NCBI GenBank assembly: GCA_964658305.1
Contig: OZ210884.1
Location: forward strand, 1,860,001-1,924,000
Source: Leptogorgia sarmentosa
Taxonomy: Eukaryota
Direction: 5' to 3'
Length of the DNA: 64,000 bases
Translations under genes and position numbers: made by a program
The notes under the pieces: model-generated
What the model was told of the DNA's origin: nothing
Database searches by the model: none
What the model saw: the letters and a program-made list of their open reading frames with translations, nothing else
Shown here: piece by piece, positions 1 through 39,715 of the stretch
Layout: each line of letters opens with the position of its first letter
Position numbering within the stretch: position 1 is the first letter of the stretch

Positions 1-3000
1 TTGTTCTCAGTAGCTACGAACCAGTGAATTGGGTTCTTAATATACCATCTCACACAACTATCGCAAAAGTTATCCTGGTTAGTAAAGAAATTCCCTAAGG
101 TCAGGGGCGCAGCGAAGGGTATACATTTTGGGGAGTGCGAGATAAGTTTTTGCCGACAAAAGGTCGTGGTTAGGGCGTGTTTTGGGCGTCGACGAACCAC
201 ACCATATTTAATTTTGAAAGGATTATACCATATATAATATCATTGTTGTCAATTTCCTGGACGCTGATTGGCGAAAAAGCTTCAACAACTGTGCAGATTA
301 AACATTAATTGCACGGTTTCGGGCACGCGGTACATTCTAAAAACAAATAAATAAACGCTTATCAACGCTAAAATTCTTGTTTTTTTCGTCATTTATTGTC
401 AACTTTGGACAAAAATGTTTAGTGAACGTGTACTACAATAATATATTATTAATACGAAATTACACTTGTTCTCGAAGTATTAATGGAAAATTGCACTTGT
501 GTTTGGCAAGAAAATTGCACTTGTGTTTTTCCTATACTAATTGGTTGAGAGTGAGAACGATTTATTTTCAAAATACCCGAAACAATTTCTTAAAATACAT
601 GGTAAAATATTGAGGTAACTGCCGAAATAGACAGAAGTGATTTTCATCGTCGCCGCCGAACGGGCTCAGGAGTGGTGGTGCGGCTGTGAATACTGTACTA
701 AATTGGAGGGGTAAAAATTCCCCTGGGAATTTGGAGTGCCTAGATCATCGGAAATGGAACTTTTGGGGTCTCATATAGACGTATCTTTCGTTGATTATGA
801 CATATTCTTACCGAAATACATTTTGACGTTTTCGATCCGATAGCCAAAGTTTTCAGAAATAGCATGTTCACTTAGGCCACCTATTGATTTCACACTCAGT
901 TTGGCGACAACATGTGCCGACGGACATAGTCGATGACATTACGCCCTTGAGTAAGATAGTGCGGTCATATCTATTTTGTTTAAGAGGATATTTTTTTCTG
1001 ATACGCGTATTTTCGGTGCAATATGCCTAAAACGCGAAATCTTCTTGGCTTCTCAAAATGACATTTTTTCTATGATTATTATGTCGATGAAACAGCTTGC
1101 TGTTTGCCAAACCGTGCTTGGGGTTTCAGAAAGTTAAAGGAATATAAAAATTAAGAGCGCCAATAACCGGCCCAACCAGCTGGAAGAATTTGTTTACAAC
1201 CATTCAAGTAACATTTCAACGTGATTTAATTTCTATTAGGCATACTCTTCAAAATCTTTTTACTTTGGTTTGATATCATAAATTATGAAGCCATTTAAGT
1301 TTTATTCTGACATGTGAGAAACCTGAAAATTCAAAATATGAATTTCCACCATGATCTTGACTATTGAGCGCGAAATACGTGACATGGAGAAAATTTTCGC
1401 CTGTATATGTTTGCCGTGTCAATGATAAACGCATCTTGCCGGAGATTCTCCTATGATTTTGTAGTATTTTCATTTGTTTGTTATTATAATAATGTTTTAA
1501 CGTACCATTCCTACCACAAATGACATATATCAATTATTCTCAATATACAAATTTAAAAAAAATGTAATTCTCAACAATATGAGCATATATTCTCTACTTT
1601 ATAATAAAATGGAATGTTAAAATGCTGGAATATGTATTAGTTATAGGTTTCAGTACTTGAAAACTGAATTATTTCTTATCCTTAATTTTTCATGTTATTA
1701 TTTTTTGTAGGTGGCTTACGACATATTAGAAAGTTCGGTCAGCGGTGACGTCAGTCGAGTGAAAAACTTTGAACGAATTGGAATGACGAATTCCGAGTGG
1801 TCTTGTGGATTCGGGAGTGATTTAGGTGGATGCAATACAGTTAAGAATTTGAAGTAAGGAAATAATTAATCTCAGGGCCGCGCATCCATTTTCATGTTGG
1901 GAGGTTCAATTGAATAAAAAAATGTTGATATCACGTGTTTTGCATCGCATCAAAATCGACTGCGACATTTAATTGAAGGTGCGTCAGCATACCTGTTATT
2001 TGCTCTTTTCTGCGCCAACCTTGCGCCGTTTACGTCTTTACATGACAATCGACAAACGAATTCACAAGTTGAAATTTGATGAAGAACAGTAACGCGATGC
2101 AAAGAAATGAGTCGGACCCAGAATATATCAGGGCCGTATTAAGTTTCACAGGGCCAGTGGTATTTGGTGAAGTTTAACTAGGGGCCATGGATATGTTCAG
2201 CTAACCGTACTATTGTGCTGTTCTGGAAAAAATTAAAAGGTTATATTATTCTAGAAAGAATTAAAAGGTCACTATATGCCATATTACTTGGGGGGGGGGG
2301 GGGGGGGGGATAATACTGGTAATACTCACTTGCCGCCCCCCCCCCCCCCCCCGATCGCGCCAGCCCTGTTTAATCTAGGATGTGCTAAACAGGGAAACAG
2401 TTGATATTCATTAGTTATCACGCAGTTAAGGAATACGTTCATGACATCCAATTGCCAAGCTAAGGTAATTTCCTGTAAATATTACAGACAATTTGCTCTT
2501 ATCTCAATTTACTCTTATATTTCGCTTGTTTTTTGATAAAAATTATTCAAAGGCACCGTATTACGTAACAGTGTAAAACAAAATGATGAAGACCTGTTTT
2601 CGGGCGAGAATCAAACCATATTTGTGGTACATCTGGGCCATCTTTCAACCAGTTTCGATCGATTTGTATAAGTTATTATGGCTTGCTTTCACGCAAAAAT
2701 CACGCTTTTGTCTTCCGTCTTCAACTATTGTCGTTTTTTAATGATAAAAATGGGTAATTTCTAGAAAGCTTTTGATGTGACAACAACGAGTTCATCTTAT
2801 AATTGATTAACCCAGAAAGCCAAAAAATTAATTTGAAACATTTTAAAACAAGCTGAGACATGAGCCAAGTACTTAGATATCATTCGGTGTAAAATAAAAC
2901 TTTATTGCAATACACTGCGTGTAAGTGATGGCAGCTATTAATATTTCATGGCCGATATATTTCTCCCCATGGATCCTGACTTTTTCATTTTTCGCAATAT

Positions 3001-3222
3001 ATTATTTTTAGGTGCAGAATTGTTGAACAATTTTCGTCTGGATGATTAAATTATAAAAGGATTTATTGCGGATGATATTGTAAAATTTTCACCTTTATTG
3101 CGTTTTTTTATTTGCCAGACAAATTCATAAAAGTTTTGGAGTAGTGACTTCATTCCAAGGCACTTACAGAAAAAGCCAATGGTCTTTGGAGTTATCCGTC
3201 TTTAACGGGAGTGTAAATAATG
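1..3222 (+). CDS. Gene P module 1 (partial): exons B <1-77, C 1711-1853, D 3119-3222
   Basis: VLSSYEPVNWVLNIPSHTTIAKVIL | VAYDILESSVSGDVSRVKNFERIGMTNSEWSCGFGSDLGGCNTVKNLK | QIHKSFGVVTSFQGTYRKSQWSLELSVFNGSVNN; canonical splice sites. Confidence 0.88.
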
Positions 3223-6200
3223 GTAGGATTATTTTCCCTTACAAAAATACACATGTAAAAACCCACATGTGAAACACATGTGGTTCACATGTGATTCACA
3301 TGTATTTCAGTTGTGCCTTACTAACCAATTGATGCAACTATATTTTTGGAACATGAAGTACTTTAAAGCCGCCTGAGGTTTTTGTCATGGCAACACGAAC
3401 GGAAATTTATATTTCTGTATTTTTTTTAAAACTGTCAAAATATCAGCTTTTATCTTGGTTTTATTGGCATATTTTTTTAATTTGGAGAATCATTTGCTAT
3501 CCGTACGTTATTAGGACTAAGATAAACTTGAATTTGGTGCGAAATACTGCATTTATTTGCATGAAATAAATTACGGCCTTTGATACAAATAGTAAATTAC
3601 GCAAAACAAAAGTTCATTGCCGACAATATATTGACGGCGAACTTATCGGTCCTGTGTGTCAATTCATGGTCGTTTCTTCCACTTTCTCAGCGTTTTATAT
3701 CTTCTGAGAAGGCTTTTCAAGTCTTACAGCATAGATATTGTCTTTGTTTTCGCCTTTCCAAAAGCTTTAAGCCTTTAAAAAGCTTCTTAAAAGCTTTAAA
3801 AAGCTTCTCATGATAGTCCGCCATATTTTTGAGATCAGTGATGACCACCCTTCGACGATGACCCAAAGTGGCGGCCAAATCGAGCAACTTTGGACTCCGC
3901 TATGCTGCCCATTACCCAGGTGCAAATAGCCGTGCGAAATTATTACCCTCGCCCAGGGCTAACGCCCGGACGCGCTTCACGCCGTGGCTCGGGGATGAAA
4001 GTTTAAAATGAGCGACGAGGAGTATTTTGAGAGCGAGTTTTATTACCCAAAGGTTGACAATGAAGGATACGAAACCGTTTTTTGTCAGTTTAACTTTGAG
4101 ATCATTTTGAAAAGCACATAATTATGCCTTATAATAAAAAAACTTACGGACTTCCAATGCCCGGGCTGTGCGGGAAAGTATCAAACCTCAGTTTGATATT
4201 TTCCCGCACAGTATTGCTTTTCCTTAAGAAGACCATTTGTATAATATACGAAAAAATATTTTGCGAATTTGTTTTTCAGGTACAAGCGTAAATACATCTA
4301 TTTTTCCTACGGCTTGGCCAAAGGTTCGAAGAGTGAAATGCTCGTCCGGCTATTGCTCTGGGCAAACTAATATGAAACCTGTTTGTAAAGACGGATACTG
4401 CTACTGCAATGGAAAGGATTACGATTACGATACTTGTTTGCGTGAGTTCTGACGTGGTTGGTTTTAAACACTGAGCTAAAGAATTACTGGAGAGAGTGCA
4501 CGCCCCCAAAAGTTGAAGCCAAAATAATGGCGTGGATTCATGCTTGCCACGTCAGATCCACGCCACTTATTCCTAATTTTCATTGGAGCAACACTGACCA
4601 GAACTAACTTTGAGCCCACTAAAGATTTGTTTTCGCGAAAATATTTTGGTTTTTGCATAATATTTTTCGGTTTTTCTTCCTTTTTTGACATTCTGATATC
4701 ATTTGCTGTCTTCAAGACGACTCAAGAATTGGCGACATCTATTCTAGTTAGTTAAAAATTAAGCGGCACAGATATTCAGAGCTCGAAAATCTCATTTGAA
4801 ACTTGAAAGGTAGTCTCTTTAGAAAATATTTTATTCAATTTTTTTCATAAAAAGGGATTACATTTACTTTTCTGGCTGAAAAAACTCTGCTTTTTTATAG
4901 AACGTTTTTATATCAGCCGTGCAAAAATTCGGCCTATAAGACCGCTGTTGGTCAGTGGAAATTATAAGAGAAACAACAACCAGTGGCGTCAGCAACGGTA
5001 AAATCCGCCATGTTTTTGGCTTCACCCCTTTGTATGGAAATAGTCGAGTGCACTCTCTCCAGTCTTTCTTTAGCTCAGTGGTTTTAAAAAAGTGAATTAA
5101 TTGAAATGTTAGGGCGGGGGGGGGGCGTTTACATTTCTATAGAACCTTTGGTTTTTATGTTATGTCAACAAGAATAAATGATAATGCCCCTCTTTCCTTT
5201 ACCAGCAAGTATTGTGTCTATTACATAACTGTATTAACTTCAAGTAATGAGGTTACCACCTATCTCTAATATCTATTCTATACATAGGATGTCATGATTT
5301 TGCAATATTTCCATCAAGGTCGTAGAAATTATAACAATATCTGTCCGAAAATTCCACCAATTCGTGAAGAAAACAAGCCAAAAAAAATAATATTGAAAAA
5401 GTGTTAATTTTGAAAAGAATTTAACATGAGAATAACACGAAGCAAGACAAGACATGAACATGGAAAGAACGTGACAAGAAAATCACATGAACATCTCATG
5501 AACGTATAGGAAATTCGTGAAAAGATCGAAAATTTCCTATAATATTAAGAAGCTAGTACGGGTTGTTTCCCGGACTTGGCAATTTTATCTATTGCATCTG
5601 CCAACATAATTATACCGAGATAATTAAGTTACAGTTTGTTCGACAAAATTGCACTCATTCGTAAAGTGTTCGTATGTTAACCAAGGCAAACATTTGCATG
5701 TCATCTCGATTAAGACGTTTCAGAAGAGTACGATTAATAGTTTTTCTCTTTTTTGCGTTGCGTAAAATTCTTTTCAGAATACGTTTTTCTTGGATATTAA
5801 ATGATTATTCAACATCCGCTTTCTCGGTCATTTGAACGCCTCGTGACACCGTGACACTTGAATAAACAACTTTTCCTTCCTCTAGCTGATGCTTATGGAT
5901 GTAAAATTGTTGCAAATTCTGATACCACCTTCACTTGTACTCCTGAAAACAGTTCATCAAAGTACGAGGTGCATGTACTGGCTGTGTACGAGGTTATCAA
6001 CAGACGTCCTCCAACAGCTGGTGATTCCAACGTCAATATCATCAGTGGTGGAAAATCCAACAGACCCATTATACTTGTGCTTGTTAGCTACGAACCTGTA
6101 AACTGGGTTCTTAATATTCCACCTGACATTATCATCGACAAAGTTATCCTGGTTAGTACAAAACACGTTAAAGAAGTATCATAGTTTATATGCGGTCATA

Positions 6201-9200
6201 GCTATCTCAAATTTCTAAAAATGTTGACGAACAAATGGCAATAAATTACAGCTTCTGCTGTACCTTCTGCTATCATCTTGTGTTTAATGACTGCCAGCCT
6301 TTCTCAATCACACTACCCCATTAGGGTATTTATTGCATCGTTTTTGGTTTGTAGAATTATTTACTTAGGTCGAATTTTTTTACCATTGTTGGAAACAGAT
6401 TGTAATTTGTAATGTATTTCAAAACAGATCTAGACTGTCATTACAATTTAACACTAAATTTCGAAATTTCACGTAGAAAACGCGCATGAAGAAAACCTAT
6501 TCTTGGCGGAAATGGAACTTTTGGGGTCTCATATAGACGTATATTTTGTTGATTGTCACATATTCTTACCGAAATACATTTTGACGTTTTCGATCCCACA
6601 GCCAAAGTTTTCACAAATAACATGTTCTCTCAAGTCACCCATTGAATTCACACTTATTTTGGCGACAAAAGGTTTCATGTGTCGACGAACATAGTCGATG
6701 ACATCACGCCCTTGAGTATGGTAGGAGGTTGATGTCTATTTTGTTTAAGAAAATTTTTTTTCTAACACGCGTATTTCCGATGCAATATATATGCTGAAAA
6801 TAAACCTGCAATCTTTTTGGCCGGCCAAAATGAAATTTTTCTATTACTCTTTTCTCGATTAAACAGTTTGCTATTTGCAAAACCGTGCTTGGGGAAAGTA
6901 AAAGGCATGAGAAAATAAAATAAAAATTAGGAGCGTCAATGTTCGTATAACCGGCGCAACCAGCAGGAAGACTTTGTTTATAACCATTGAAATGATATTT
7001 CAGACGTAATTTTCTATTTGGCGTACTCTCGAAAATATTTTTACTTTGGTATGGTATCATAAATTATGAACCTATCTAAGTTGGCTTGCCAACTGAGAAT
7101 TCAAAATGTGAGTTTCGATCATCTTGAGTATTGAGCGCGAGATACGTAACATGTAGGAAATCTTCGTCTTAGCTCATAACTTTGCCGTTTCAAGCATAAA
7201 CGCATCTTGCCGTAGATACTCCTATGATTTTGAAGTGTTTTCATTCTTTTGTTATTATAATAATGTTTTAATTTATCATTCCAAGCACAAATGATATAAA
7301 AAATTATTTGTTATTCTCAATATTATTCATGTTATTTCTGTAGGTGGCTTTCTATATATTAGAAAGTTCCGTCAGCGGTGACGTGAGTCAAGTGAAAAAT
7401 ATTGAACGGATTGGAAGGACGAACTCCGAGTGGTCTTGTGGATACGGGAGTGATATAGGTGGATGCAATACAGTTAGGAATTTGAAGTAAGTAAATAACA
7501 GGGGCGCTTGAACTGTGTTTACCAAGTTATTTTGTAAACGAATAATAACTGTTAGTGCATAGGCTCTATACTTTAAAAAAGAATAGCCCTGTAACATCCC
7601 ATTCATTTGACAGACAAATACACAGACTGTTTGGTGTCGTGACGTCGTTTAGAGGCACTTACAGAACAAGTCGATGGTCACTGGAGTTGTCGCCTTTTAA
7701 CGGGACTGTAAACAACGGTACGTTTTTGCATTAATGGATTCAAATTCTCCCACTTTACCGGAACTAACAAGGAGTAGAAAGTCTTCCTTTTCAAAACTGC
7801 TGCAACTTTCTCGAAGTCATTTGAAAATTTTGAAACGAGAACATAGAGAGGAAACGCATTCCCTCCCACCACCGGCCTCCGCCCCACCGTTCGCACCATG
7901 GAAAGTTACAAATTAGTTTAGAAGTATCTAAAGTTGTAACGTAAATAAATTTTGAGTTAAGAATGTGCTATTACACATATTGGGCCTCGAAAGGATAGTT
8001 TTCCTGGAGAAGAATTGGCATCAACACATTATATATATATCTTGTAAAGTTTATTTTTAGGTTCCAACCCAATCACAGAAATCATTCCCACCTCTCGGCC
8101 AACAATTCGGAGACAGAAATGCGGGGGCATTGACAGCAATTGCCCTGAACAATCTGAAGACATGAAAGCTTTCTGTAAAGATGGATACTGCTACTGTAAT
8201 GGGACGGACTATGATTACGACACTTGCCTGCGTAAGTTCTTTAATTGCTTGATTTTCATTGCAAGTTGTTGTTATTACACATGTTTACCATCCTATCCAA
8301 CAGGTACGATCTGTGAGATCAGAGGTTGTCAAAATCGTGCATTTTGTTGCCTGGGGTCGGTTGTATAAAACTCTTAACTATCCGTTTCGTAGTTAAACGG
8401 TAGTTAACTTTGAAATACCCGTTTCTGATTGGTCAATTTTCCCATTTAACTATAGTTAACTTTAACTAGTACGTTTTAATACAACCGGCCCCTGATCTTT
8501 AACCATTTCCGCTAAATCTTACCACGCTTTTGCATTGCTATAATATGACACGAACCAAGGGGAAATAATTATCAAAAGATCTTGAATAGAACTTTAAGAG
8601 AAAATACATCTCAACAACATGAAAACTAGCCGAGGAAAACATCACATTACACTGCAAACATGATGAGTGCATAACAGGAATATGGCGAAGCAAATTATAA
8701 GAACAAACTTCCAAAATTATGTAACTATCGCTTTCTCTGTAACATACCCGGCTGCTGATGCGTAAATATAAACTTTTCTGTTACCCCAGCTAGCTGATGG
8801 ATATGGATGTAAAATTTTTGCAAATTCCGATACCACCTATATTATTTTATTCGACATGCGCTTAATTTCTCGCTCATTTGATCGGCTCCCGACACCGTGA
8901 CACATGACTAAACAACTTTTCCTTACCCTAGCTGATGCATATGGATGTAAAATTGTTTCAAATTCCGATACCACGTACACTTGTACTCCTGATAACAGTT
9001 CACCAAAGTACGAGATTCATGTACTGGCTGTGTACGAGGTCACCAGCAGCCGTTATTCAACAGCAGCAACAGCTAAGGCCATGGTCGATATCATCAATCG
9101 TGGAAAATCCAACAGACCAATTATACTTGTGCTCGTTAGCTATGAACCAGTAAACTGGGTTCTAAATATTCCTTCAGGCGTAACGATCGGCAAAGTTATC

Positions 9201-12200
9201 TTGGTTAGTACAAAATAATTTAAAGATGTTTGACAGTTTGTACGCGGTCAAATCTGCGGGTTTTGAAAGCTAACAATAAATTGCATTAAATTACAAATCG
9301 GACAAATTGTAATAAATTACAGGGGCCCAAAAATAGGTTCTCTCACACTGGGTTTCATCCACCCTTTTAGCTGGCGAAATAATTGCTTAGGCCAGATCTA
9401 ATTTCACCACAGTTTGAAAGAAATTATAATTTGTACTGTACTACAAAAAGATACGAGACTCTCGTTACATTTTAACACAAAATTTGGAAATGTCACAAAG
9501 ATAACGCGCATGAAAAAAATCTTATTTTTGCGATCTTTTACGCAGGAAAATCTAGCAATTAAATTGCAATGCTTATACGCGGAGAGGCTGAGTGTTAAAC
9601 AATTTTCAAAAAGCCAAACAATTTTAATACCTTTATTCTTTTGAAAAAAAAAGATGGATATCCCATAGCCTGAGTACGGCTAAAAAATTTGAATTGGAAG
9701 TCCGAATTACTGAAGCTTGTAACAATCCAGTTTTCGGACGTTCGTGTCAGCTTGAACAAAATTTCTGAAATTAATTACTTTTTTTAAATTGCTCCATATT
9801 TTCACGTGATTAAAAGCCAAGCACTAAAGTAGCTCACATCAACGAACTTGCTAGAATAAAGGATACATTTTAACACTAATTGACTGCCGTAAATACCGAA
9901 GTGTCGTGTTGGCGTTCGCAACGAACACAATGTCCTTAATTTTTTCCGCCCTCATAATTTCAGATATTTTATTTTTCTAGTTTAATTTTTTTAATTATAA
10001 TTCCTGTGCACATCTAGTTAAAAATGTTACGTTAATATTAAATACTTGTATAATTTTCAGTATTTCATGTTATCTTGTGTAGGTGTCTCATTATATAGTG
10101 GAAAGTGCAGTTAGTGGTGATGTAAATAGGGTGAGAAGTATTGAACGAATTAGAACGAAGATTTCGAATTCAGAGTGGGAAACGGGATACGGAAGTGTTT
10201 CTGGCGATGGGGGGACAGTAAAGACTCTCAAGTAAGTAAACAGTAAATTTTTATCAATTTTATCGTTAAATTTGCAAATCTGTAACATCCCATTCATTTG
10301 ACAGACAAATACACAAACTGTATGGAGTCGTGACGTCGTTTAGAGGCACTTACAGAACAAATCGATGGTCACTGGAGTTGTCGCCTTTTAATGGGACTGT
10401 AAACAACGGTACGTTTTTTGCATTAATGGTTCAAATTTTCCCACTTGTGCGGGAAATAACTGCCTAAACCGCGGCTAACAAGGAATGCAAAGTCTTGATT
10501 TTCAAAACTGCTGCAAGTTTCCCGAAGTCATTTGAAAATTTCGAAACAAAAACGCAGAGAGGAAACACATTCCACCCCACCACCCGCCTCCGCCCCACCG
10601 TTCGCTCCATGGAAAGTTACAAATTAGTTTAGAAGTATTATTGTAAGTATTATTAAATAAATGTAATTATTTTGTAACGTAAATAATTTTTGTTTTAAGA
10701 ATGTGTTGTTACACAAAATGTTATTCGAAAGCAAAGTTGCCCTGGAGAACGATTGGTATCAGCACATTTACCTTGTAAATTTTATTTTTAGGTTCGAGCC
10801 CAATCACAGAAATCATTCCCACCGCTTCGCCAACAATTCGGAGACAGAAATGTAGGGGCATTGAAAGCAATTGCCCTGGCCAATTGGGAGACATGAAAGC
10901 TTTCTGTAAAGATGGATACTGCTACTGTAATGGCACGGGCTATAATTACGACACTTGCTTGCGTAAGTTATTTAATTGTTTGATTTTAATTGCAAGTTGT
11001 TGTTATTACACATGTTGACCATCCTATCCAACAGGTACGATCTGTGAGATCAGAACTTGTCAAAATCGTGCATGTTCTTGCCTGATCTTCAAGCATTTCC
11101 GATAAATCTTGCCACGCTTTTGCCATTGCTATAATATGACAAGAACAAAGGGGAAATAATTATCAAAAGATCTTGTTTGAATTGAACTTTACACGAAAAT
11201 GCATCTCAACAACATGAAAACAAGCCGAGGAAAACATCACAGTACACTGCAAGCTTGATGAGTGCATAACAGGAATATGGCGAAGCAAATTATAAGAACA
11301 AACTTCCATGATGATGTAACTATGGCTTTCTCTGTAACATACCCGGCTGCTGTTGCGTAAATTTAAACTTTTTTGTTACCCTAGCTAGCTGATGCATATG
11401 GATGTAAAACCTTTGCAAATTCTGATACTACCTATACTTATTCGACATCCGTTTTCTAGCTCACTTGATCGGCCCCCTACACCGTGACACTTGAATAAAC
11501 AACTTTTCCTTCCTCTAGCTGAAGCGTATGGATGTAAAATTGTTTCAAATTCCGATACAACGTACAGTTGTACTCCTGATAACAGTTCAGCAAAGTACGA
11601 GATTCACGTACTGGCTGTGTACGAGGCATCTGGTACTGCTAATGTCAATATGAACAGCCGTGGAGAATCCAACAGACCCATTATACTTGTGCTTGTTAGC
11701 TACGAACCCGTAAACTGGGTTCTTAATATTCCACCGGACATTATCATCAACACAGTTATCCTGGTTAGTACAAAACACGTTAAAGAAGTATCACAGTTTC
11801 TATGCGGTCATAGCTATCTCAAATTTCTAAAAATGTTGACGAACAAATGGCAATAAATTACTGCAGCGACCTTCTGCTATCATCTTGTGTTTAATGATTG
11901 CCAGCGAAAAAAATAGCCTTTCTCAATCGCACTACGCCATTAGGGTATTTATTGCATCGTTTTTGGTTTGTAGAATTATTTACTTAGGTCGAATTTTTTT
12001 TTTACCAATGTTGGAAACAGATTGTAATTAGTAATGTATTTCATAACAGAACTAGACTTCATGTCATTACAATTTAACACTAAATTTCGAAATTTCACGT
12101 GGAAAACGCGCATAGAAAAAACCTATTCTTGGCGGAAATGGAACTTTTGGGGTCTCATATGGACGTATCTTTCGTTGAATGTGAAATTGATTACCGAAAT

Positions 12201-15200
12201 ACATTTTGACGTTTTCGATCCCACAGCCAAAGTTTTTACAAATAACATGTTCTCTCAAGTTACCTATTGACTACTACTTTGGTTTGATATGATAAATTAT
12301 GAACCTATCTAAGTTGGCCTGCATGCCAACTTAGAAATCAAAATGTGAATTTCCATCATCTTGAGTATTGAGCGCGAGGTACGTAACATGTAGGAAATCT
12401 TCGTCTTAGCTCATAACTTTGCCGTTTCAAACATAAACGCATCTTGCCGTAGATACTCCTATGATTTTGAAGTGTTTTCATTTTTTTGTTATTATAACAA
12501 GGTTTTAATTTATCATTCCAAGTACAAATGATATAAAAAATTATTTGTTATTCTCAATATTATTCATGTTATTTCTGTAGGTGGCTTTCTATATATTAGA
12601 AAGTTCCGTCAGCGGTGACGTCAGTCAAGTGAAAAATATTGAACGGATTGGAACGACGATCTCCGAGTGGTATAGTGGATACGGAAGTGTTTCTGATGGT
12701 TGGGGGACAGTAAAGACTCTCAAGTAGGTAAACAGTAAATTTTTATCAATTTCATCCTTAAATTTGCAAGTCTGTAACATCCCATTCATTTGACAGACAA
12801 ATACACAAACTGTTTGGTGTCGTGACGTCGTTTAGAGGCACTTACAGAACAAATCGATGGTCACTGGAGTTTTCGCCTTTTAATGGGACTGTAAACAACG
12901 GTACGTTTTTTGCATTAATTGATTCAAATTCTCCCACTTTACTGGAACTAACAAGGAGTACAAAGTCTTCCTTTTCAAAACTGCTACAACTTTCTCGAAG
13001 TCATTTGAAAATTTTGAAACGAGAACATAGAGAGGAAAGGCATTCCCTCCCACCACCCGCCTCCGCCCCACCGTTCGCACCATGGAAAGTTACAAATTAG
13101 TTTAGAAGTTTCTAAAGTTGTAACGTAAATAAATTTTGAGTTAAGAATGTGTTATTACACAAATTGTGCCTCGAAAGGATAGTTTTCCAGCTGGAGAAGA
13201 ATTGGCATCAGCACATTATATATATCTTGTAAAATTTGTTTTTAGGTTCCAACCCAATCACAGAAATCATTCCCACCGCTTGGCCAACAGTTCGGAGACA
13301 GAAATGTAGGGGCATTGAAAGCAATTGCCCTGGCCAATTGGGAGACATGAAAGCTTTCTGTAAAGATGGATACTGCTACTGTAATGGGACGGACTATGAT
13401 TACGACACTTGCCTGCGTAAGTTCTTTAATTGCTTGATTTTCATTGCAAGTTGTTGTTATTACACATGTTTACCATCCTATCCAACAGGTACGATCTGTG
13501 AGATCAGAGGTTGTCAAAATCGTGCATTTTGTTGCCTGGGGTCGGTTGTATAAAACTCTTAACTATCCGTTTCGTAGTTAAACGGTAGTTAACTTTGAAA
13601 TACCCGTTTCTGATTGGTCAATTTTCCCACTTAACTATAGTTAACTTTAACTACGTTTTAATACAACCGGCCCCAGATCTTTAACCATTTCCGCTAAATC
13701 TTACCACGCTTTTGCATTGCTATAATATGACACGAACCAAGGGGAAATAATTATCAAAAGATCTTGAATAGAACTTTACAAGAAAATACATCTCAACAAC
13801 ATGAAAACTAGCCGAGGAAAACATCACATTACACTGCAAACATGATGAGTGCATAACAGGAATATGGCGAAGCAAATTATAAGAACAAACTTCCAAAATT
13901 ATGTAACTATCGCTTTCTCTGTAACATACCCGGCTGCTGATGCGTAAATATAAACTTTTCTGTTACCCCAGCTAGCTGATGGATATGGATGTAAAATTTT
14001 TGCAAATTCCGATACCACCTATATTATTTTATTCGACATGCGCTTAATTTCTCGCTCATTTGATCGGCTCCCGACACCGTGACACATGACTAAACAACTT
14101 TTCCTTACCCTAGCTGATGCATATGGATGTAAAATTGTTTCAAATTCCGATACCACGTACACTTGTACTCCTGATAACAGTTCACCAAAGTACGAGATTC
14201 ATGTACTGGCTGTGTACGAGGTCACCAGCAGCCGTTATTCAACAGCAGCAACAGCTAAGGCCATGGTCGATATCATCAATCGTGGAAAATCCAACAGACC
14301 AATTATACTTGTGCTCGTTAGCTATGAACCAGTAAACTGGGTTCTAAATATTCCTTCAGGCGTAACGATCGGCAAAGTTATCTTGGTTAGTACAAAATAA
14401 TTTAAAGATGTTTGATAGTTTGTACGCGGTCAAATCTGCGGGTTTTGAAAGCTAACAATAAATTGCATTAAATTACAAATCGGACAAATTGTAATAAATT
14501 ACAGGGGCCCAAAAATAGGTTCTCTCACACTGGGTTTCATCCACCCTTTTAGCTGGCGAAATAATTGCTTAGGCCAGATCTAATTTCACCACAGTTTGAA
14601 AGAAATTATAATTTGTACTGTACTTCAAAAAGATACGAGACTCTCATTACATTTTAACACAAAATTTGGAAATGTCACAAAGATAACGCGCATGAAAAAA
14701 ATCTTATTTTTGCGATCTTTCACGCAGGAAAATCTAGCAATTAAATTGCAATGCTTATACGCGGAGAGGCTGAGTGTTAAACAATTTTCAAAAAGCCAAA
14801 CAATTTTAATACCTTTATTCTTTTGAAAAAAAAAGATGGATATCCCATAGCCTGAGTACGGCTAAAAAATTTGAATTGGAAGTCCGAATTATTGAAGCTT
14901 GTAACAATCCAGTTTTCGGACGTTCGTGTCAGCTTGAACAAAATTTCTGAAATTAATTACTTTTTTTAAATTGCTACTTATTTTCACGTGATTAAAAGCC
15001 AAGCACTAAAGTAGCTCACATCAACGAACTTGCTAGAATAAAGGATACATTTTAACACTAATTGACTGCCGTAAATACCGAAGTGTCGTGTCAGCGTTCG
15101 CTACGAACACAATGTCCTTAATTTTTTCCGCCCTCATAATTTCAGATATTTTATTTTTCTGGTTTAAATTTTTTTAATTATAATTCCTGTGCACATCTAG

Positions 15201-18200
15201 TTAAAAATGTTGATATTAAATACTTGTATAATTTTCAGGATTTCATGTTATCTTGTGTAGGTGTCTCATTATATAGTGGAAAGTGCAGTTAGTGGTGATG
15301 TAAATAGGGTGAGAAGTATTGAACGAATTAGAACGAAGATTTCGAATTCAGAGTGGGAAACGGGATACGGAAGTGTTTCTGGCGATGGGGGGACAGTAAA
15401 GACTCTCAAGTAAGTAAACAGTAAATTTTTATCAATTTTATCGTTAAATTTGCAAATCTGTAACATCCCATTCATTTGACAGACAAATACACAAACTGTA
15501 TGGAGTCGTGACGTCGTTTAGAGGCACTTACAGAACAAATCGATGGTCACTGGAGTTGTCGCCTTTTAATGGGACTGTAAACAACGGTACGTTTTTTGCA
15601 TTAATGGTTCAAATTTTCCCACTTGTGCGGGAAATAACTGCCTAAACCGCGGCTAACAAGGAATGCAAAGTCTTGATTTTCAAAACTGCTGCAAGTTTCC
15701 CGAAGTCATTTGAAAATTTCGAAACAAAAACGCAGAGAGGAAACACATTCCACCCCACCACCCGCCTCCGCCCCACCGTTCGCTCCATGGAAAGTTACAA
15801 ATTAGTTTAGAAGTATTATTGTAAGTATTATTAAATAAATGTAATTATTTTGTAACGTAAATAATTTTTGTGTTAAGAATGCGTTGTTACACAAAATGTT
15901 ATTCGAAAGCAAAGTTACCTTGGAGAACGATTGGTATCAGCACATTACCTTGTAAATTTTATTTTTAGGTTCGAGCCCAATCACAGAAATCATTCCCACC
16001 GCTTCGCCAACAATTCGGAGACAGAAATGTAGGGGCATTGGCAGCAATTGCCCTGGCCAATTGGGAGACATGAAAGCTTTCTGTAAAGATGGATACTGCT
16101 ACTGTAATGGGACGGATTATGATTACGACACTTGCTTGCGTAAGTTCTTTAATTGCTTGATTTTAATTGCAAGTTGTTGTTATTACACATGTTGACCATC
16201 CTATCTAACAGGTACGATCTGTGAGATCAGAGGTTGTCAAAATCGTGCATGTTCTTGCCTGATCTTCAAGCATTTCCGCTAAATGTTGCCACGCTTTTGC
16301 CATAGCTATAATATGACAAAAAAAAGGGGAAATAATTATCAAAAGATCTTGTTTGAATAGAACTTCACACGAAAATACATCTCAATAGTATGAAAAGAAG
16401 CCGAGGAAAACATCACATTATACTGCTAGCATGATGAGTGCATAACAGGAATATGGCGAAGCAAATTATAAGAACAAACTTCCATGATGATGTAACTATC
16501 GCTTTCTCTGTAACATACCCGGCTGCTGTTGCGTAAATTTAAACTTTTTTGTTACCCTAGCTAGCTGATGCATATGGATGTAAAACCTTTGCAAATTCTG
16601 ATACCACCTATACTTATTCGACATCCGATTTCTCGCTCACTTGATCGGCTCCGGACACCGTGACACATGAATAAACAACTTTTTCTTACCCTAGCTGATG
16701 TCTATGGATGTAAAATTGTTTCAAATTCCGATACCACGTACAGTTGTACTCCTGATAACAGTTCAGCAAAGTACGAGATTCACGTACTGGCTGTGTACGA
16801 GGCATCTGGTACTGCTAATGTCAATATGAACAGCCGTGGAAAATCCAACAGACCCATTATACTTGTGCTTGTTAGCTACGAACCCGTAAACTGGGTCCTT
16901 AATATTCCACCGGACATTATCATCAACACAGTTATCCTGGTTAGTACAAAACACGTTAAAGAAGTATCACAGTTTCTATGCGGTCATAGCTATCTCAAAT
17001 TTCTAAAAATGTTGACGAACAAATGGCAATAAATTACTGCAGCGACCTTCTGCTTTCATCTTGTGTTTAATGATTGCCAGCGAAAAAATAGCCTTTCTCA
17101 ATCGCACTACGCCATTAGGGTATTTATTGCATCGTTTTTGGTTTGTAGAATTATTTACTTAGGTCGATTGTAATTTGTACTGTATTTCAAAATAGAACTA
17201 GACTGTCATTACAATTTAACACTAAATTTCGAAATTTCACGTAGAAAACGCGCATGAAAAAAACCTATTTCTGCATGGCGATTTTTCGCGCAAGGAGATC
17301 TATCAATTCAATTAGTATAGGAAATTACACAGTTCGAGAAGTATTAATGAAAAATTGCACGCGTGTTTGGCGAAATACCGCGAGTGCTTAGCAACGAAAA
17401 AGCTAAGTGTTTATTAAGCAATTTTTAAACAGTTTATCTTTTTGCTTTTGAAAAAAAAGAGACATTTTAGCTAATTACATTTAGCTCGAAAAATACCAGA
17501 CGGTCGTAAGTATCTGGGCTAACTTAATAGGTTCCTTATTTTTAGCGCGCTCATAGTTTCAGACAAATGAATTTCGAACTTTCAAATAAATCGTAATGGA
17601 GTACACGTCTTGTTATAATTTTAATATTTTCTTACTTGTATAATTTTAAAGTTTTTCATATCATCTTGCGTAGGTGTCTCATATACAAAGAAGTTCTGTT
17701 AGAGGTGATGTAAATTTTGTGATATTTTTTGAGCTAACTTCGGACTGGTCTTTCGGATACGGAAGTGATTCTGGTGGAGGGGCGACAGTAAAGACTCTCA
17801 AGTAAGAAGACAGTTAATCTGAAATGTGTTTATCAAATTCAATGATCAACTGAGGCAACCTAGATACAGGACAAAACTTGTACCATTTTATCATCAAATT
17901 CGCAAACCTTAACATTAGATTATTTTGACAGACAAATACACAAACGGTTTGGTGTCGTGACATCCTTTAGAGGTGCTTACAGAGCAAACCGCTGGTCGTT
18001 GGAATTGTCGGCGCCATTCAATGGAACTGGAAATGTTGGTAGGTTTCTGTATTTTTTTTATCTTTTACATTTCATGTAAAATTGTTCATCGCGGAAGAAT
18101 TGTCACAATTTTGATCGCGTTCAGCGGAATGGTAGACACTTATTTCTTTTGAAGCAAATACCTTGTTTGCTGGCCCTGCTTGTTTATAATTTGTTTCTTC

Positions 18201-21200
18201 AAGCTTTAGTAGCCTGTTTTAATTTTTGGTGGTAGGGAAATCTTGCACAGGTTGCAGGCGTAGCGATAAGGTGGCAAACAAGTCGTAATAACGAATTATG
18301 CGAGGAAAATATTAATTGCATCGCCAGAAATCGCGGACTTTGAACTGGGGGATATCGGTTTGCATTGTTGTCCCTTATTATCCTCCGCTATATCTTTTAT
18401 TCACTCTTCGAAATTCAAAATGGCGTCTCGTCGAAAGAGGAGTGTTCCAGTATTAAATTATAACGAATTGAACAATTTATCTTCTGAAATTATTTTTAAA
18501 ACTGGAAGAAAACCAAAATCTTCGTATGAAATATCTGAGATAGTCAGCTTTAAATCCCGCCATTTCAGCAAAACTTTTCGAGATATTTTGAGTACAACAC
18601 AATTACCAGACCTTTGATTATTTACATATCTCAAACAGGAAGTTTCCCCTTGAAGATTGACTTTATAATTAACTTTCAATATTTCTTGCCATGATAAAGA
18701 ATCCGATATTTTAATATTAATTTTAATATTATTAATATTTAATAGTTTCGTGCTTTTTTGTGCAAGATTAAGGCAATATTTATCAATACTGTATGAAATA
18801 TATCATTTTAAACAACGATATTTCCGCTGAACAAAACAATCGAAGTAAATTCACAAACATAAACAAAATATAGGATAAATGGGCTTTAAAACGATGTATT
18901 TCTCGAACTTTTTGGTCCTTTATTGGCCAAAAAATCCTTGTTTGGAAAGCGCGCGTTGGCGGAGCTGTTTAAATTGTTTAATGAGGATGTATTTAAGGCC
19001 AAGTTTTTGTTAAAGAAAAGGAAACATCAGAATTTTAGCCAGGGGTAAGAAAATATATATTTCGACTTCATTTATGTCTATATTTTGTTTTCTATATCAC
19101 ACATTTTTGATACTATGATTGCCTAAGCTTTAACACTTCTTCAAAAGTTGTGGTTTGTAGTGATTTAGCAACATAATCAATTAATGCAATACAAAATGTC
19201 AGGCCTGCAGCGTGTAAATTCGAACTGCAAAAGGAAACATAAGATTTAAGATAATTATTGAAATTACCGTCTAATAGCCATCTTTATAATATATATTTTT
19301 GTCCCAGCATCCCACATTTTTTTTTTCTTTTAATATGTTTGAGATAAATTCGTTCAAAGACAAACAGTAATACATTTTTCTAATATATTTTCCAATATTG
19401 AGATGACTAATGGCCTGGGGCGAGATAGCTAATTAAAATGCGGATGTCCGCGATTTCTGGCGATGGAAATAATAAATTTCCACACAGTCAGGTTGAAAAT
19501 TCAATTAATATCTTATTATGCTGCTGTGATATCAAGTTCGGTCCCCGCCACAATTATGATGTTGAACAACCTCCAATAATATCGTTCGAAGCAGTTGGTA
19601 TATATCCTTCTTTTAATCAAAAATAGATTGCTGTTTCCATTGGACGAACAGGCGAAGATCTTGCCGGATCTCACAAAATCTTACTATATAAGACTTGATA
19701 TAATAACTCGAATAATCCAAAATTGATTTAATTAGAACTATCCCGAGTAGCATGTAGTAATTCATGCTTTAAAACAAGCGTAATTTGGTATGGTTACTAC
19801 GGCAGCTTGTTGTCATTTAGGGCGAGCTTATCATGTTCACAATTTTATTATATGGCTTTGGAAAGGTCTATTCTGATAGGTTGACAGGCGCTCCGTAAGA
19901 AACCATATCCGGAACGTCGACCGTATTTTCTGTATCTGGGCAGGTGTCCCGGATGTCGTTTATTTGGCGAGAAATTTCGCTTAACAAACAGGAAAGACTT
20001 TTGCTTTTTACTTCACTCATTTAAAATTTACAGATACAAATTTCAGAAAAACAAATTGCTTTTTTATTGAACATGTATGTTTACCGTACTGTTATCCACT
20101 GAAACTGACGATATCCGATTTAATTCTGGAGAAATGCATGCATATGCACAAAGACTCAATACAGGCATATAATAAACGTATTATTGACATCGCATGTTCG
20201 GTTGCATTGACCTCGATCCTTCGGTTCGGTCCATATTAAAAAACCTCGGTGTGATATTTCACAGTACAGACCTCACGCTCAGTCAATAACTCATTGTTAT
20301 TTTAACTGTTCCATCCAAACTGATCTATCTACTCCGTTCTGCGAATAGTTATATATATCGATAGTGCGAATTAGTCAGACATATCGTTGGTGTGTATTCT
20401 ACACAATTTGTTTTTTTTTAATTTTATTAATTTTTTTAATACATTTTACATTTTAAGATTTCGTTTTCATTTTTCCAGCTACCACGACAGGCACATCCAA
20501 ACCCACATTCTCAACAACCGCTACTGTCACATCCAAACCCACATTCTCAACAACCGCTGCAGTCACATCCAAACCCACATTTCAAACAACTGCCAAAGTC
20601 TCACCAACCGTCCCTAGAAGGAATTGTTCAAGCGACAGTTATTGTCCCGGACAAACCAGTAGCATGAGAGCTTTTTGTAAAGACGGATACTGTTACTGCA
20701 ATGGCAAAGGATACAATTACGATACTTGTCTGCGTAAGTGGTTTTTTAACAAATTTCTTCTTCGTTATTCACGATGGGAAAGCGTATAGTTTTCTTCAGG
20801 AAGAGGCAGGCCTAAAAGGTGCCAAATATTCATTGTCCAACAACAGGGGATTATTGACACAACGTTGTCGTGATGGACCCCTCTGTAGTAGTGTTTTTTG
20901 CATTGCTCCCGCCCAACAATAGAAAGAAAATTGCATTTTACTCCAGTGACCCTGGCCTCATTCTTAGCCCGTATAAAATGAATGAAACGTTAACAGAAAT
21001 TAAGCGCAAATAAAATTTCAAGGTGAAATTAATATTACTGCGAAATTTAGGGTTCGATGAAATTGACAAAGAACAATAATTTATTACTTACATGATAATT
21101 TATATTGTTACTTAAATTTTATTCAGTGCATGCACTTTCTTAAAATGAGAGACAGAATTACCCAGATACTCCACGACAATATTTTCGCGCCCCGTTTACA

Positions 21201-24200
21201 AGGCACGTTTACACAGGGCAATTCATCTGCGATTTTATGATCGATCTTCTCCTTTTGAGCAATGTTAAGGTGTAGATTACCTGTCAAGGTTGCATCTTTG
21301 AGATTTCATAACTTGGAACAATGATAACTGATTCAGCCTTTCACATCGTTTCAAAAGATAAATCCGACGTAAAAACGAAGAGAAAATAACCGTTGTAAAC
21401 GGGCTTTTACAGAGCGGGATTTGAACAAGTAAACCATGCATTCCACGCTTCGGCAACTGAAGAGTATGCAACAAAATGTAATCAACAGCCGGACCCTTAA
21501 TCCCTACCTCCACTCTTTCACATTTCTGCAACGAAATTTCACGCTGGCTATAATTGTAGTTTTTGAAAAGGTTTGTTTAGAAACAAAATAGTATAAGTAT
21601 ACAACAGAAGATTGTTTTTTCAATGCAATATTTCTTAAAAATTCTTCTATTCTACGAATCAAAATATTTGTACTACGGTAACAAATGCATTTAGCTATAG
21701 CTTATTTATTATTTTACCGGCAAGATAAGATCTTCATAAAAAAGCAGGAGAACAAATTTTGCTAGTAATTGTTGATATGATCATGATGTTCCAAGCACAC
21801 ACGTATGGTAAGAATCATTAACTGAAATGTATTTTGTTTATTATTACCCTAGCTGATGCATATGGATGTAAAATTTTACCTGATGCTAAGACAGCCTTGG
21901 GAACACCACGTTTTACCGGAGGAACGCTCCAGAAAATATACAGTTGTGTTCCTGCAAACAGCTCATCACAGTACGAAGTCCACGTTCTGTCTGTGTACAA
22001 AGTTGCCAACAGACGTTCTTCAGTAACTGCTAAAGCTAAAGTCAATATCGTCAGTCGCGAAAAATCCAACAGACCTATTGTACTTGTTCTGGTCAGCTAT
22101 CGAGCAGCAAATTGGGTCCTTAACATACCATCTAACGTTACCATCAATAAAGTTATTTTGGTGAGTATACGTACATACCCATGTTTTGTATCTTCCCAAA
22201 ATCTTGTGCGATGCTACTGCGTCACTATAACGACGTCCGTTTGCTCTAGTTGATCCTTCAAGAATCCTTCAGGAATTCCCCCGCTATTTTAAAACAGCAG
22301 TTGTACATTTTCCTCATTTTTGTTATATTTTCCACGAGCTTCTTGCATACATTTCCCATCCTGTTTTCCTATAAAAAACCTACAATCGTCTCAAGAAAGT
22401 TGGAAGATTTTTTCAGATCCGGCAAGAGTTAAAATTTTACATGTCAAGTTTTTGGCAAACAAAAGTCTCGAGTAAAACGTAGGGGTGAAATCCTCTAGAG
22501 AAAATGCCGTCATCACAGCAAAGCTCTTCTGATGTTTTTGCACCGTCTTTTGACAATATCGTGACTCAAGAATATACTCAAATAAAAATAAAATAATATT
22601 CTTCTAGTTGCTTTGTCGGAAATATATTACTGAGCTTAGTAAAGATTTTGACGATCGACTACTACTAGTTGCATTAGAACCATTTTTTTCTTATTATATT
22701 TACATGTGTTATATTTACATCAAATTGATCAATCTTTGTGTTGCGATTCGAATCCATTATAATCGAAATAGAAAATATTGTTCATCTGGGGTACACTGTA
22801 TAGGTGAGCCGAAGGTTATACTTATAGACAAATTCGAAATGATACGTAACGTCTTTCTAGGGCGTTTGTTTAGATAACCAATTTAATCACAGTGATGCCT
22901 TTACATCCCGAGTACTTATTATATCACTTGGCAGTGTTATAATGCAAAATTTGCACGTTTTACGGAACAAGAAAAAAGTTACCCATCGGCCATCGCCTTT
23001 TGCGCACTTAGAGTTTAGGGTTCAAGGTCTTTGGAGGACAACCTTTTTTGAATTAGCTGTCAGAATATAAAAAAAACAATCAATAATATTATCTCGTGAA
23101 GAAAGTATATTACCAAGACCCAAAGTGTCTGTCTCTTAATTAATTAAATCGAAAATCAAGCATTCCGCATATGCAAGTAGTCTATGGGCATGGCCAGTAG
23201 AATTCAAACATGAGCTATCTTTTGTTAGGTTATAATCATGCCAATATGTATGTTATCTATCAGTGAAAATATTATCATTTGTAATTTTATATAATTTTAT
23301 TATTTTGTGTTCTTTTATGTGTGTAGGTATCTTTTTATATAACACAAAGTTCCGTTAGTAGAGATCTGGGTCGCGTGAAAAATGTTGAACGAATTGAAGT
23401 AACTGGATCGGACTGGCATTATGGATACGGAAGCGATTCGGGTTGTGGAAGAACAGTGAAGATACTGGAGTAAGTAAGAATGCCTGACTTGGAAAATTAA
23501 GTGTGCTTATTTAAATGTATTTGTACTGAGCACCTTCTAATTAAATGCAATGACAACTTATATCAGCTGAATCAGTTGCGATGTTGCGATGCGTGAAATT
23601 TATCTCAAAAAGCTGATTCATCACAGACCACTGTTAATGCCGTGCTGCTAAAGCGTTGCGCTATATCCGTTGCGCTATTCTCAACAAAAAGAAAACTTCT
23701 TGTGGAAATACATTACAATTCCATCTATCGTATGATCGTTTCGTTTCACGAAAAAAGCAAATTTATCGTTAATACAATGTGTCCCAAAGGAAAAATACTC
23801 TCTGCCATAAACTTCTGTGAACATATAACTTTTACGAATGGTCCAAGTTGCAATTTTTTAGCAGATAGATGCCCAGCGTGACAGCTTCTCTGTTACAAAT
23901 TTTGTTGACAAAATGTTGAAATATAGAATTTCTAGGGAGATTTAAATAGCGAGGACCAAAATTCTCACATGTCTAAGATTTACTTAAATTCGCTTACTGT
24001 TCAGACTTAACATTTGGTGGAATCCAGTTAAATTTTACACATTGTGGATAAATGCGACATATAACAATCTTTTGGGTTGGTTAGAGACATATCGTGACAT
24101 TCTACTGAAACATTTGTGAAACAAATATTTTGGTAATCTTGTTTTTAGTTTGCTAGTGGTACGCTGTCAGAAACAGACACTGCCAGTAGATCTGCCAATC

Positions 24201-26711: not shown

Positions 26712-27215
26712 TTATCTTTGGTTGTATGTGTGGTTAACATATACATTCCGATCGCGAACAGGTTGATTGTGCTGCATCATTCGTTTTTCTCGCTTTTTAA
26801 GATATCGATCAGCCGCAAACCCTGGAAAATAAATATTAAAGTTTTATTATTTGGCCACAAATCGAGCTAGGATTCGTTGCATTGTAAACATGCGAAAGAT
26901 GCAAACAGTCATGCACTTACAGCTTGTGCACATCTTCGCCATGCATATAGCTAATGCTGATAGTTGCATTAAAGCGAACAAAAAATGTGTATATTAAAAG
27001 TGTGTAATTATAATGCTTTGTCGAATTACCTAGGGCAATCATCAACGGTACCAAAATAAGCATCAGATAATATTCATTTTGGTCAACATCGCTTGAATTC
27101 GTATTCCGTCCATTGTTGTATTCTGTTTTGGTATGAGGAAACAGGTTTAAATTACTGGTAGGTTTCGTTTTCTCAAACCGTGTTGCAGTGCCACAATATC
27201 TGCAATTTGGTAGCA
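26712..27215 (-). CDS. Gene M stalk, transmembrane and cytoplasmic exons (27215-27030, 26956-26921, 26821-26712)
   Basis: Three phase-1 exons join to ...DVDQNEYYLMLILVPLMIAL|ALAICMAKMCTS|WFAADRYLKKREKRMMQHNQPVRDRNVYVNHTYNQR*: about 20 hydrophobic residues followed by a basic cytoplasmic patch. Confidence 0.75.
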
Positions 27216-39200: not shown

Positions 39201-39715
39201 TTATCACAATGACGTTGTATATAAAGAAACCGCAAAATCCCAAGAGCTTATTGTTTGTTTCTCGACAATCTAAAATTACTGAAGTCTAGTGAAGTAACTT
39301 GCAGTGCGGCGTTAATTTGAATATCGAGCCGTGGTCAATATCAGCAAAACAAACCAAGTTAAAAAAGTTTGAGTAAATGCTTTATTCGGTCATTCGTAAG
39401 CTCGCTCTTTTAGCAGCCGTAACAAAGATGAGGCGTCACATTTCGATGCATATTAAGTCTGAAGAAAGACATACTGTATGAATATCGACCAATTAATCTG
39501 ACCTATGGAATGCAGGAACACAACTTACGCAAACACGTATCATAATTATAGTCTTTCCCGTTACAGTAGCAGTAACCACTTTTGCAAACAGGCTTCATGT
39601 CACCATAACCAGGACAGTAGTTACGTTGACATCTTGTTTTTTGGCAAGAAACAAGTGCTGGGAAATATTCCAGGGCAATAAAAATCACGACACAGTTGAA
39701 GAAACTTTTTTCCAT
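26712..39715 (-). CDS. Gene M (complete CDS, 15 coding exons, 786 aa): type I membrane protein; signal peptide + 3 x [EGF/EB-like cap + betaglycan/endoglin orphan-like domain] + stalk + TM + short Tyr-motif tail
   Basis: Hand-spliced on the minus strand, all GT-AG, 2361 nt open frame. Exons: 39715-39529, 38859-38585, 36422-36280, 35709-35606, 35322-35158, 34618-34353, 33702-33560, 33445-33342, 32708-32565, 31202-30937, 30035-29893, 28843-28755, 27215-27030, 26956-26921, 26821-26712 (TAA). Confidence 0.86.
28755..32708 (-). CDS. Gene M module 3 exons A 32708-32565, B 31202-30937, C 30035-29893, D 28843-28755
   Basis: Same cassette; D is shortened (QIHKRYGVVTSFRGTYRTNQWSLKLSGDV) with a GTAAGT donor, phase 1. 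Confidence 0.86.
30757..30876. mobile_element. MITE, PIF/Harbinger (Tourist)-like
   Basis: Imperfect TIRs (..gacgtc..ttcatgtgccgaa / ttcggcacatgaa..gacgtc..); TAA on both flanks. Confidence 0.7.
31287..31673. mobile_element. TIR element (aatggaccaattgca termini); relative near 53898-54127
   Basis: Long imperfect inverted arms; a second diverged copy is in the window. Confidence 0.65.
33342..35322 (-). CDS. Gene M module 2 exons A 35322-35158, B 34618-34353, C 33702-33560, D 33445-33342
   Basis: Same cassette, open frame. Confidence 0.88.
34918..35095. mobile_element. MITE with internal 10-bp tandem repeat (gactttgggc)n
   Basis: TIR aacctgggaccttaagtcg / cgacttaaggtcccaggtt; 4 internal decamer copies. 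Confidence 0.7.
35606..38859 (-). CDS. Gene M module 1 exons B 38859-38585, C 36422-36280, D 35709-35606
   Basis: Homologous to gene P exons with identical phases. Confidence 0.88.
35749..36198 (-). mobile_element. Non-autonomous hairpin element, probably Crypton-derived
   Basis: Absent from the paralogous intron 33446-33559; ataataa at both ends; about 150-nt hairpin; remnant ORF MACSRFASLNESEL at 35963. Confidence 0.65.
37401..37510. mobile_element. 110-bp fold-back MITE with 7-bp TSD, P-superfamily-like
   Basis: cataggtagcccaacgcacg...cgtgcgttgggctactatg; TSD ctatttt (37394-37400, 37511-37517). Confidence 0.8.
37859..38193. mobile_element. 335-bp fold-back MITE with 7-bp TSD, P-superfamily-like
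   Basis: Near-perfect inverted arms of about 125 bp starting cataggcagccc; TSD gatagtc (37852-37858, 38194-38200); empty site at 3812-3818. Confidence 0.88.
39529..39715 (-). CDS. Gene M first coding exon: signal peptide + first Cys-rich cap
   Basis: MEKSFFNCVVIFIALEYFPALVSC-QKTRCQRNYCPGYGDMKPVCKSGYCYCNGKDYNYDTCL. An acceptor (ctgcag) lies 16 nt upstream of the ATG, implying a 5'UTR exon; candidate donor CG|GTGAGT at 39888. Confidence 0.85.

Follow-up and report, generated by a model that had tools for sequence, protein, structure and literature searches.

Tandem single-unit orphan domains related to those of betaglycan and endoglin in two gene models of the coral Leptogorgia sarmentosa

What does a coral do with a row of betaglycan-like domains in genes that have no ZP domain? 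The question is raised by a 64,000-nt stretch of Leptogorgia sarmentosa DNA (assembly GCA_964658305.1, contig OZ210884.1, positions 1,860,001 to 1,924,000; "the window" below), eukaryotic DNA with ∼36% G+C and repeats spaced ∼2.6 kb apart. A sequence-only reading of one repeat unit, termed here module p1, had likened it to the orphan domain of betaglycan (TGFBR3) and endoglin. It proposed an expanded family without ZP domains, possibly serving as a TGF-beta/BMP co-receptor and trap or else reusing the fold for recognition. Expansion was borne out: we count 10 orphan-domain modules in the window, spread over two neighbouring genes (7 on the + strand, 3 on the − strand). The homology was also confirmed, by sequence profiles and predicted structures. 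The co-receptor or trap did not hold up as the leading explanation, and recognition fits better, with evidence that points to recognition as the older use of the fold rather than a reuse.

Module p1 and its fold

Module p1 comprises four exons.

4280..4441, + strand: exon A, Ser/Thr-rich linker and six-cysteine domain, which precedes every orphan domain
5886..6151, + strand: exon B, Cys-flanked N-terminal hairpin, first orphan-domain strands, variable loop and SYEPVNW motif
7344..7486, + strand: exon C, middle strands and conserved GYGxDxxGxxT loop (with a Cys pair in this copy)
7614..7717, + strand: exon D, helix and final two strands (FGVVTSF...WSLEL)

Exons B, C and D have AG/GT borders and phases 1-0-2-1 and join in frame without a stop; the sequence-only reading had placed all three exactly. 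The motifs it quoted are present in the order it gave, except that p1 itself reads LKQIHRLF...TSRWSLEL, the KLF and NRW forms coming from other copies. It had missed exon A, and also the Cys-flanked hairpin of exon B, which is part of the fold. Together exons A–D form a phase-1 symmetrical module of ∼220–245 amino acids (aa) bearing 2–4 N-glycosylation sequons, and the linker plus six-cysteine domain leaves ∼56–94 residues between successive units. The six-cysteine domain had no significant match; weak EGF and scorpion-toxin-like rows appeared in PDB at E 0.3–1.2.

A profile of 16 sequences (A3) was searched against PDB. The top four matches were all TGFBR3, with a best E of 2.6e-6 summed over both repeats. 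A single-sequence search found no PDB match, a 5-sequence profile reached only E 0.045, and endoglin was not matched at the sequence level in these profile searches. The nine complete modules of the window scored 185–245 bits against a profile made from other animals. Motif order and Cys-to-EVH spacing are alike in betaglycan and the coral unit. Both hairpin-flanking cysteines are invariant in A3, at a spacing that matches betaglycan and endoglin, and may form a disulfide. Our local Pfam copy, which lacks PF26060, assigned no orphan-domain family to single exons or homologues, nor did NCBIfam. An ESM Atlas search gave no usable match, and the ESM Atlas model of homologue P0083 was poor. The PF26060 label, probably that of the TGFBR3/endoglin N-terminal family, is precomputed on many coral and amphioxus homologues. 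It links the homologues to a named family and does not describe the module architecture.

Structural comparison used models of two homologues. These were P0008 (77% identical to p1 over 193 aa; predicted local distance difference test, pLDDT, 62) and P0077 (57% identical; pLDDT 86, predicted template modelling score 0.82), the second a single unit that forms a parallel beta-helix-like domain with one helix. The ten best Foldseek matches to either model were all betaglycan or endoglin orphan domains, followed by matches at E 0.38 (P0008) and 1.5 (P0077). Against betaglycan the P0077 model reached Z 17.2 with a root-mean-square deviation (rmsd) of 2.8 Å over 155 residues; across entries 9FDY, 6MZN/6MZP, 9B9F and 7LBG the values were Z 16–17, rmsd 2.6–2.8 Å, 149–155 residues and 18–21% identity. 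The fold is also shared with the endoglin orphan region (5I04/5HZW; Z 11.6–11.8, rmsd 3.3 Å). Only 3 of 48,161 chains, two betaglycan entries and one endoglin, reached Z 5. No unrelated fold matched better, the next chain standing at Z 3.6.

The coral module differs from betaglycan in its layout. Each coral unit is single, self-contained and preceded by a six-cysteine domain, and there are 3 to at least 7 copies per gene; betaglycan has an intertwined, directly adjacent OD1/OD2 pair. Three motifs, YE, SYEP and GYGxDxxGxxT, are conserved in the family and changed or missing in betaglycan. In the P0077 model they come after successive parallel strands. Aligned to zebrafish betaglycan, the extra GYGxDxxGxxT loop falls opposite a gap; across 77 full-length family domains its D is conserved in 83% and its T in 94%.

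Gene models and variation among modules

Exon borders in both gene models were our choice from candidate splice sites. Terminal exons were assigned by frame, by likeness to homologue tails and by comparison with a paralogous exon pair at 47559-46769.

3..25128, + strand: gene 1, 27 exons coding for 1547 aa with 7 or more orphan-domain modules; 5′ end before the window
24319..24454, + strand: last exon D of gene 1, lengthened by a segment containing Cys-Cys
25030..25128, + strand: predicted last exon of gene 1, encoding a coiled-coil-like helix before the stop, without a hydrophobic anchor
26712..39715, − strand: gene 2, 14 exons coding for 774 aa; predicted signal peptide, then 3 modules, a stalk, a predicted transmembrane helix and a short cytoplasmic tail
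39529..39715, − strand: first coding exon of gene 2, predicted signal peptide and six-cysteine domain, matched by the N-termini of homologues P0004, P0032 and P0077
27030..27215, − strand: predicted stalk/transmembrane exon of gene 2, acceptor picked by frame
26712..26821, − strand: predicted exon for the cytoplasmic tail of gene 2, which has a basic stop-transfer cluster plus three tyrosines
7042..17269, + strand: recent tandem duplication of ∼5.2 kb and two modules, 95% DNA identity

The 27 exons of gene 1 join without an internal stop, its first module being truncated by the window edge. Its predicted last exon resembles the tail of homologue P0003 (tblastn E 0.001) and has a maximal 19-residue hydropathy of 0.34; the stalk/transmembrane exon of gene 2 resembles the P0008 tail (E 2.8e-8) and reaches 1.9. 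A transmembrane helix with a short tail is thus predicted in gene 2 only, on terminal splicing that is itself predicted. Neither model contains a ZP domain or leaves space for one, in agreement with the sequence-only reading. Endoglin does have one, and in type III TGF-beta co-receptors the ZP domain lies between the orphan region and the membrane.

Read contigs bear on these models to a small degree. Contigs of runs X4 and X5, which are not recorded as RNA, were deep over exons and shallow over introns. One 280-nt X4 contig aligned to exon C alone (7343-7486), a weak hint. Another weak hint is a GT..AG joint connecting exon D with an exon A, weak because its short side has 25 letters and lands on a paralogous exon.

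The paralogous pair on the − strand, a transmembrane exon (47559-47497) and a tail exon (46875-46769), corresponds to the last two exons of gene 2. No orphan-domain exons were found upstream of it within the window, and a six-frame profile search of 40–64 kb gave no additional module exons. The pair may be either a remnant or the end of a gene whose other exons are different or distant. A palindrome with 169-nt arms, 89% complementary, lies in a gene 2 intron (37857-38195).

Modules of the window are 60–98% identical to one another. The ratio of nonsynonymous to synonymous substitution rates (dN/dS), computed pairwise among the nine complete modules, was 0.19–0.47 in 35 of 36 pairs, indicating purifying selection. 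We rejected the possibility that the array is an artefact or a set of pseudogenes, given open frames and dN/dS far below 1. Variation concentrates in the loop after VYE, which is 8–18 residues long across copies and is the most variable 12-column window among window modules (0.72, median 0.30). The ratio of nonsynonymous to synonymous polymorphism (pN/pS), with 8 modules pooled, was 0.87 in this loop and 0.36 in the core.

Cysteines of the exon B hairpin are 11 residues apart in eight of the nine complete modules. Module p6 (21853-22160), with 25, is the sole window module with the long hairpin of other animals. Module p1 and the truncated first module carry a Cys pair in the GYGxD loop, a feature they share with amphioxus and some bacterial relatives. 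Within the recent duplication, 2 silent and 6 replacement changes separate p2 from p4; assembly collapse or haplotype duplication may be an alternative origin of the duplicated segment. Short dead copies of the exon B start, each with its own acceptor, lie ∼130 bases before real exons B (at 8794, 11389, 13976 and 16565).

Relatives in animals and bacteria, and origin of the vertebrate pair

A search with exon B retrieved 75 proteins among 130 candidates. The best came from the octocoral Paramuricea clavata (77–81% identical), followed by stony corals and amphioxus. The 16-sequence profile reached 1198 cluster representatives at E ≤ 0.001; among 20 representatives looked up, the named clusters were from a sponge, molluscs, a sea cucumber, hemichordates and amphioxus. 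Family members are often mislabelled, for example as "myosin light chain kinase-like". We ran Pfam on 59 of 150 listed representatives (new, longer ones) and on 15 earlier matches. Partner domains included C-type lectin, SUEL lectin, F5/8, kringle, sushi, SRCR, WAP, antistasin, Reeler, TARSH_C, VWD, MAM, TSP1 and trypsin. The ZP family was found in 0 of the 15 and 0 of the 59. Topologies were type I, type II or apparently secreted; in mollusc members P0176, P0182 and P0198 the topology is type II, with one module at the outer end of the membrane protein. By a simple pattern, a six-cysteine unit lies upstream in 44 of the 77 full-length domains. Two long proteins, P0195 and P0216, have 5–7 tandem domains of myxobacterial type with Thr-rich linkers between them, possibly a separate transfer into a eukaryote.

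Searching bacterial genomes by animal alignment gave no match. A scan of 185,579 prokaryote genomes for exact motif matches, however, yielded 112 loci, and the animal core profile scored 74 of the 112 open reading frames (ORFs) at 30 bits or more, with a highest score of 68. Twenty control ORFs, with the motif kept and the remainder shuffled, scored at most 23.8 bits. With the motif masked, 25 of the 112 still scored at least 10 bits (control maximum 5.0). The relatives occur in Polyangium, Okeania, Planctomycetes, Patescibacteria and many betaproteobacteria. In many, the domain is C-terminal and the protein resembles a surface or secreted one. They share YE, SYEP, GY and SFxGxY with the coral module, and some share the Cys pair of p1; unlike it, they have no six-cysteine partner. 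Pfam matches near or above cut-off were obtained in 5 of 30 bacterial proteins scanned, always to other parts of the protein. Bacteria are not known to have a TGF-beta pathway.

In a quick tree of 107 domains, 42 animal domains formed one group, separate from the bacterial ones (Shimodaira–Hasegawa-like approximate likelihood ratio test, SH-aLRT, 100). It omitted module p4, the truncated first module and any domain that did not pass a length or motif filter; the tree was midpoint-rooted without vertebrate sequences and carries no direction of transfer. Window modules grouped with Paramuricea, apart from the stony-coral arrays (SH-aLRT 100), so the arrays expanded separately by lineage. Relatives in so many invertebrates and in bacteria suggest that the orphan domain is likely an old surface-recognition module and not a TGF-beta specialist.

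How did the vertebrate pair arise? Saito et al. (PMC5464963) introduce the orphan domain as a new fold, only distantly like tubulin cofactor C. In endoglin, by their account, OR2 interrupts OR1 once its first two strands are complete, the disulfides are C30-C207 and C53-C182, and the halves of the vertebrate orphan region swap the N-terminal hairpin; they propose that an ancestral OR2 was duplicated and then circularly permuted. The P0077 unit, from its first cysteine (residue 68) to residue 238, aligns with rat betaglycan 4–333 and zebrafish betaglycan 30–359. These ranges, compared by first and last residue, are those of the discontinuous OD1; with the one-domain chain 7LBG_D the alignment does not begin until model residue 89. 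Hairpin cysteines are 23–26 residues apart in 14 of the 15 invertebrate units listed (P0008 has 11), close to the 22 and 24 of endoglin (C30/C53 and C182/C207; PMC5464963). Because the single unit follows the strand order of betaglycan OD1, the simplest account of the vertebrate pair would be tandem duplication with an exchange of N-terminal hairpins. We infer from the models that the vertebrate orphan region would be a tandem pair of single units with exchanged hairpins, a simpler route than OR2 duplication plus circular permutation. Single-copy units in OR1 order in invertebrates, with bacterial relatives, would give the orphan domain an ancestry.

Our open-access literature search turned up no paper describing orphan domains that lack a ZP domain, stand as single units, or belong to invertebrates or bacteria, and no paper in it mentioned PF26060. 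Still, a known domain and a database label already on homologues mean that the finding is not categorically new.

A wider proposal is tentative, and we put it at somewhat less than an even chance. The orphan domain would be an ancient surface-recognition module of bacteria and of animals from sponge to amphioxus. Betaglycan and endoglin would descend from a duplicate with a hairpin swap, in which the ancestral pocket was lost and the variable loop turned into a TGF-beta site. The coral units would form receptors and decoys, diversified by lineage, whose non-self ligands belong to a class not yet described.

Candidate functions, and repeats in the window

We favour, at roughly even odds (∼0.5), a reading in which gene 2 encodes a receptor and gene 1 a multivalent secreted recogniser of foreign or glycan-bearing surfaces, as putative ligand. 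It is favoured because of the mosaic contexts of the domain, its bacterial members and the lineage-specific arrays. Each unit would fold alone, using its N-terminal hairpin to close the domain that the hairpin belongs to. The gene 2 product would carry three units at the cell surface, with signalling or internalisation through its short tyrosine-bearing tail; the gene 1 product would be secreted and oligomerise by its coiled-coil end, offering many simultaneous binding sites. The predicted binding site is the conserved YE, SYEP and GYGxDxxGxxT patch at the ends of the parallel strands, rimmed by the copy-variable loop, and these conserved residues may be an ancestral binding patch. For signalling, the tail of the stony-coral homologue P0006 contains 11 tyrosines, and YxxL/I/V motifs occur in it 5 times, against a shuffle mean of 2.0 (p 0.03).

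Several points weigh against this reading. No positive selection was found, dN/dS being 0.2–0.5 overall and below 1 even in the loop, and variability of an exposed loop is expected anyway. Modules p2–p4 (exons C at 10083, 12581 and 15261) have lost the family-conserved Asp of the GYGxD loop. That the conserved motifs make a single surface patch is inferred from secondary structure, in models of homologues rather than of the window protein. The count of motifs of the immunoreceptor tyrosine-based inhibitory type in the P0006 tail was not above chance (p 0.35). Lectin-domain neighbours are guilt by association, and the partners TARSH_C, VWD, TSP1 and WAP equally suggest matrix roles. The "receptor" and "secreted" calls hang on predicted terminal exons and on a gene 1 whose 5′ end is outside the window. 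What speaks against the fold assignment itself is that, once bacterial sequences joined the profile, TGFBR3 fell to E 0.32 and ranked below antibody light chains, while a profile of bacterial sequences only did not match TGFBR3 in PDB. The light-chain matches themselves we rejected as chance on a short motif.

Would gene 2 instead be a TGF-beta/BMP co-receptor and gene 1 a soluble ligand trap? The only solved relatives of the module are the betaglycan and endoglin orphan domains, both binders of TGF-beta family ligands, and TGFBR3 is reached by the animal profile and not by the bacterial one. A membrane form beside a soluble form parallels betaglycan. According to PMC11865472 the ligand-binding surfaces of the two vertebrate proteins differ, which means that TGF-beta family binding can evolve on this fold more than once; endoglin, as reported in PMC5464963, binds BMP9 through OR1 alone, a domain like the coral unit in strand order (the BMP9 site of endoglin is Q270, I271, S278 and F282). 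Betaglycan itself is described as binding TGF-beta by an arc of OD1, OD2 and linker strands, mainly by OD1 loop 244–251, in which F250 is essential, with further determinants at OD2 L208/L210/L213 and F49 (PMC11865472). That loop aligns with the coral loop after VYE, where its binding residues are not kept and F250 has no equivalent. The coral proteins have neither the paired arc, their units being ∼56–94 residues apart, nor the ZP domain. Loop length and sequence vary by copy, unlike a site for a conserved growth factor. The expansion is lineage-specific, and members occur in bacteria and in protease and lectin mosaics; a separate single-copy betaglycan gene is described in sea urchin (PMC11239237). 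We therefore regard the co-receptor and trap as unlikely.

The array might also be a structural or adhesive extracellular protein of matrix, mucus or sclerite organic matrix, its modules serving as spacers or sticking to matrix. Tandem repeats, Ser/Thr-rich linkers, the sequons, the coiled-coil end and purifying selection all suit this, as do homologues fused to TARSH_C, VWD, MAM, TSP1 and Reeler and several bacterial relatives that resemble surface proteins with the domain at the tip. Frequent length changes in the loop and tyrosine-rich homologue tails suggest specificity and signalling instead, and the single-module type II forms of molluscs are not spacer-like; a matrix role seems to us improbable. 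Self/non-self adhesion of an allorecognition-like kind, with modules binding like modules between cells and possibly swapping N-terminal hairpins, draws on the clustered paralogues, the variable loop and the membrane and soluble forms. The vertebrate pair, moreover, exchanges this very hairpin (PMC5464963). Yet the modules are 60–98% identical and under purifying selection, and eight of nine complete ones have the shortened hairpin (11 residues, versus 23–26), which leaves this explanation very doubtful. The recognition receptor with a secreted partner is thus the reading we keep. For coral biology it would make these genes an unannotated surface and secreted family, candidates for recognition of microbes, symbionts or self, and such small self-folding units make the question of the original ligand testable.

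Other features of the window are repeats and short frames. Very high-copy short repeats, probably miniature transposons, lie at 4430-5100 and 8350-8470, with read depth 100–500 times that of their flanks in runs X1 and X2. At 43377-44050 and 60623-60952 there are short frames that, by eye, resemble decayed retroelement or GIY-YIG-type pieces. An array of GGCAC pentamers occupies 48361-48516.

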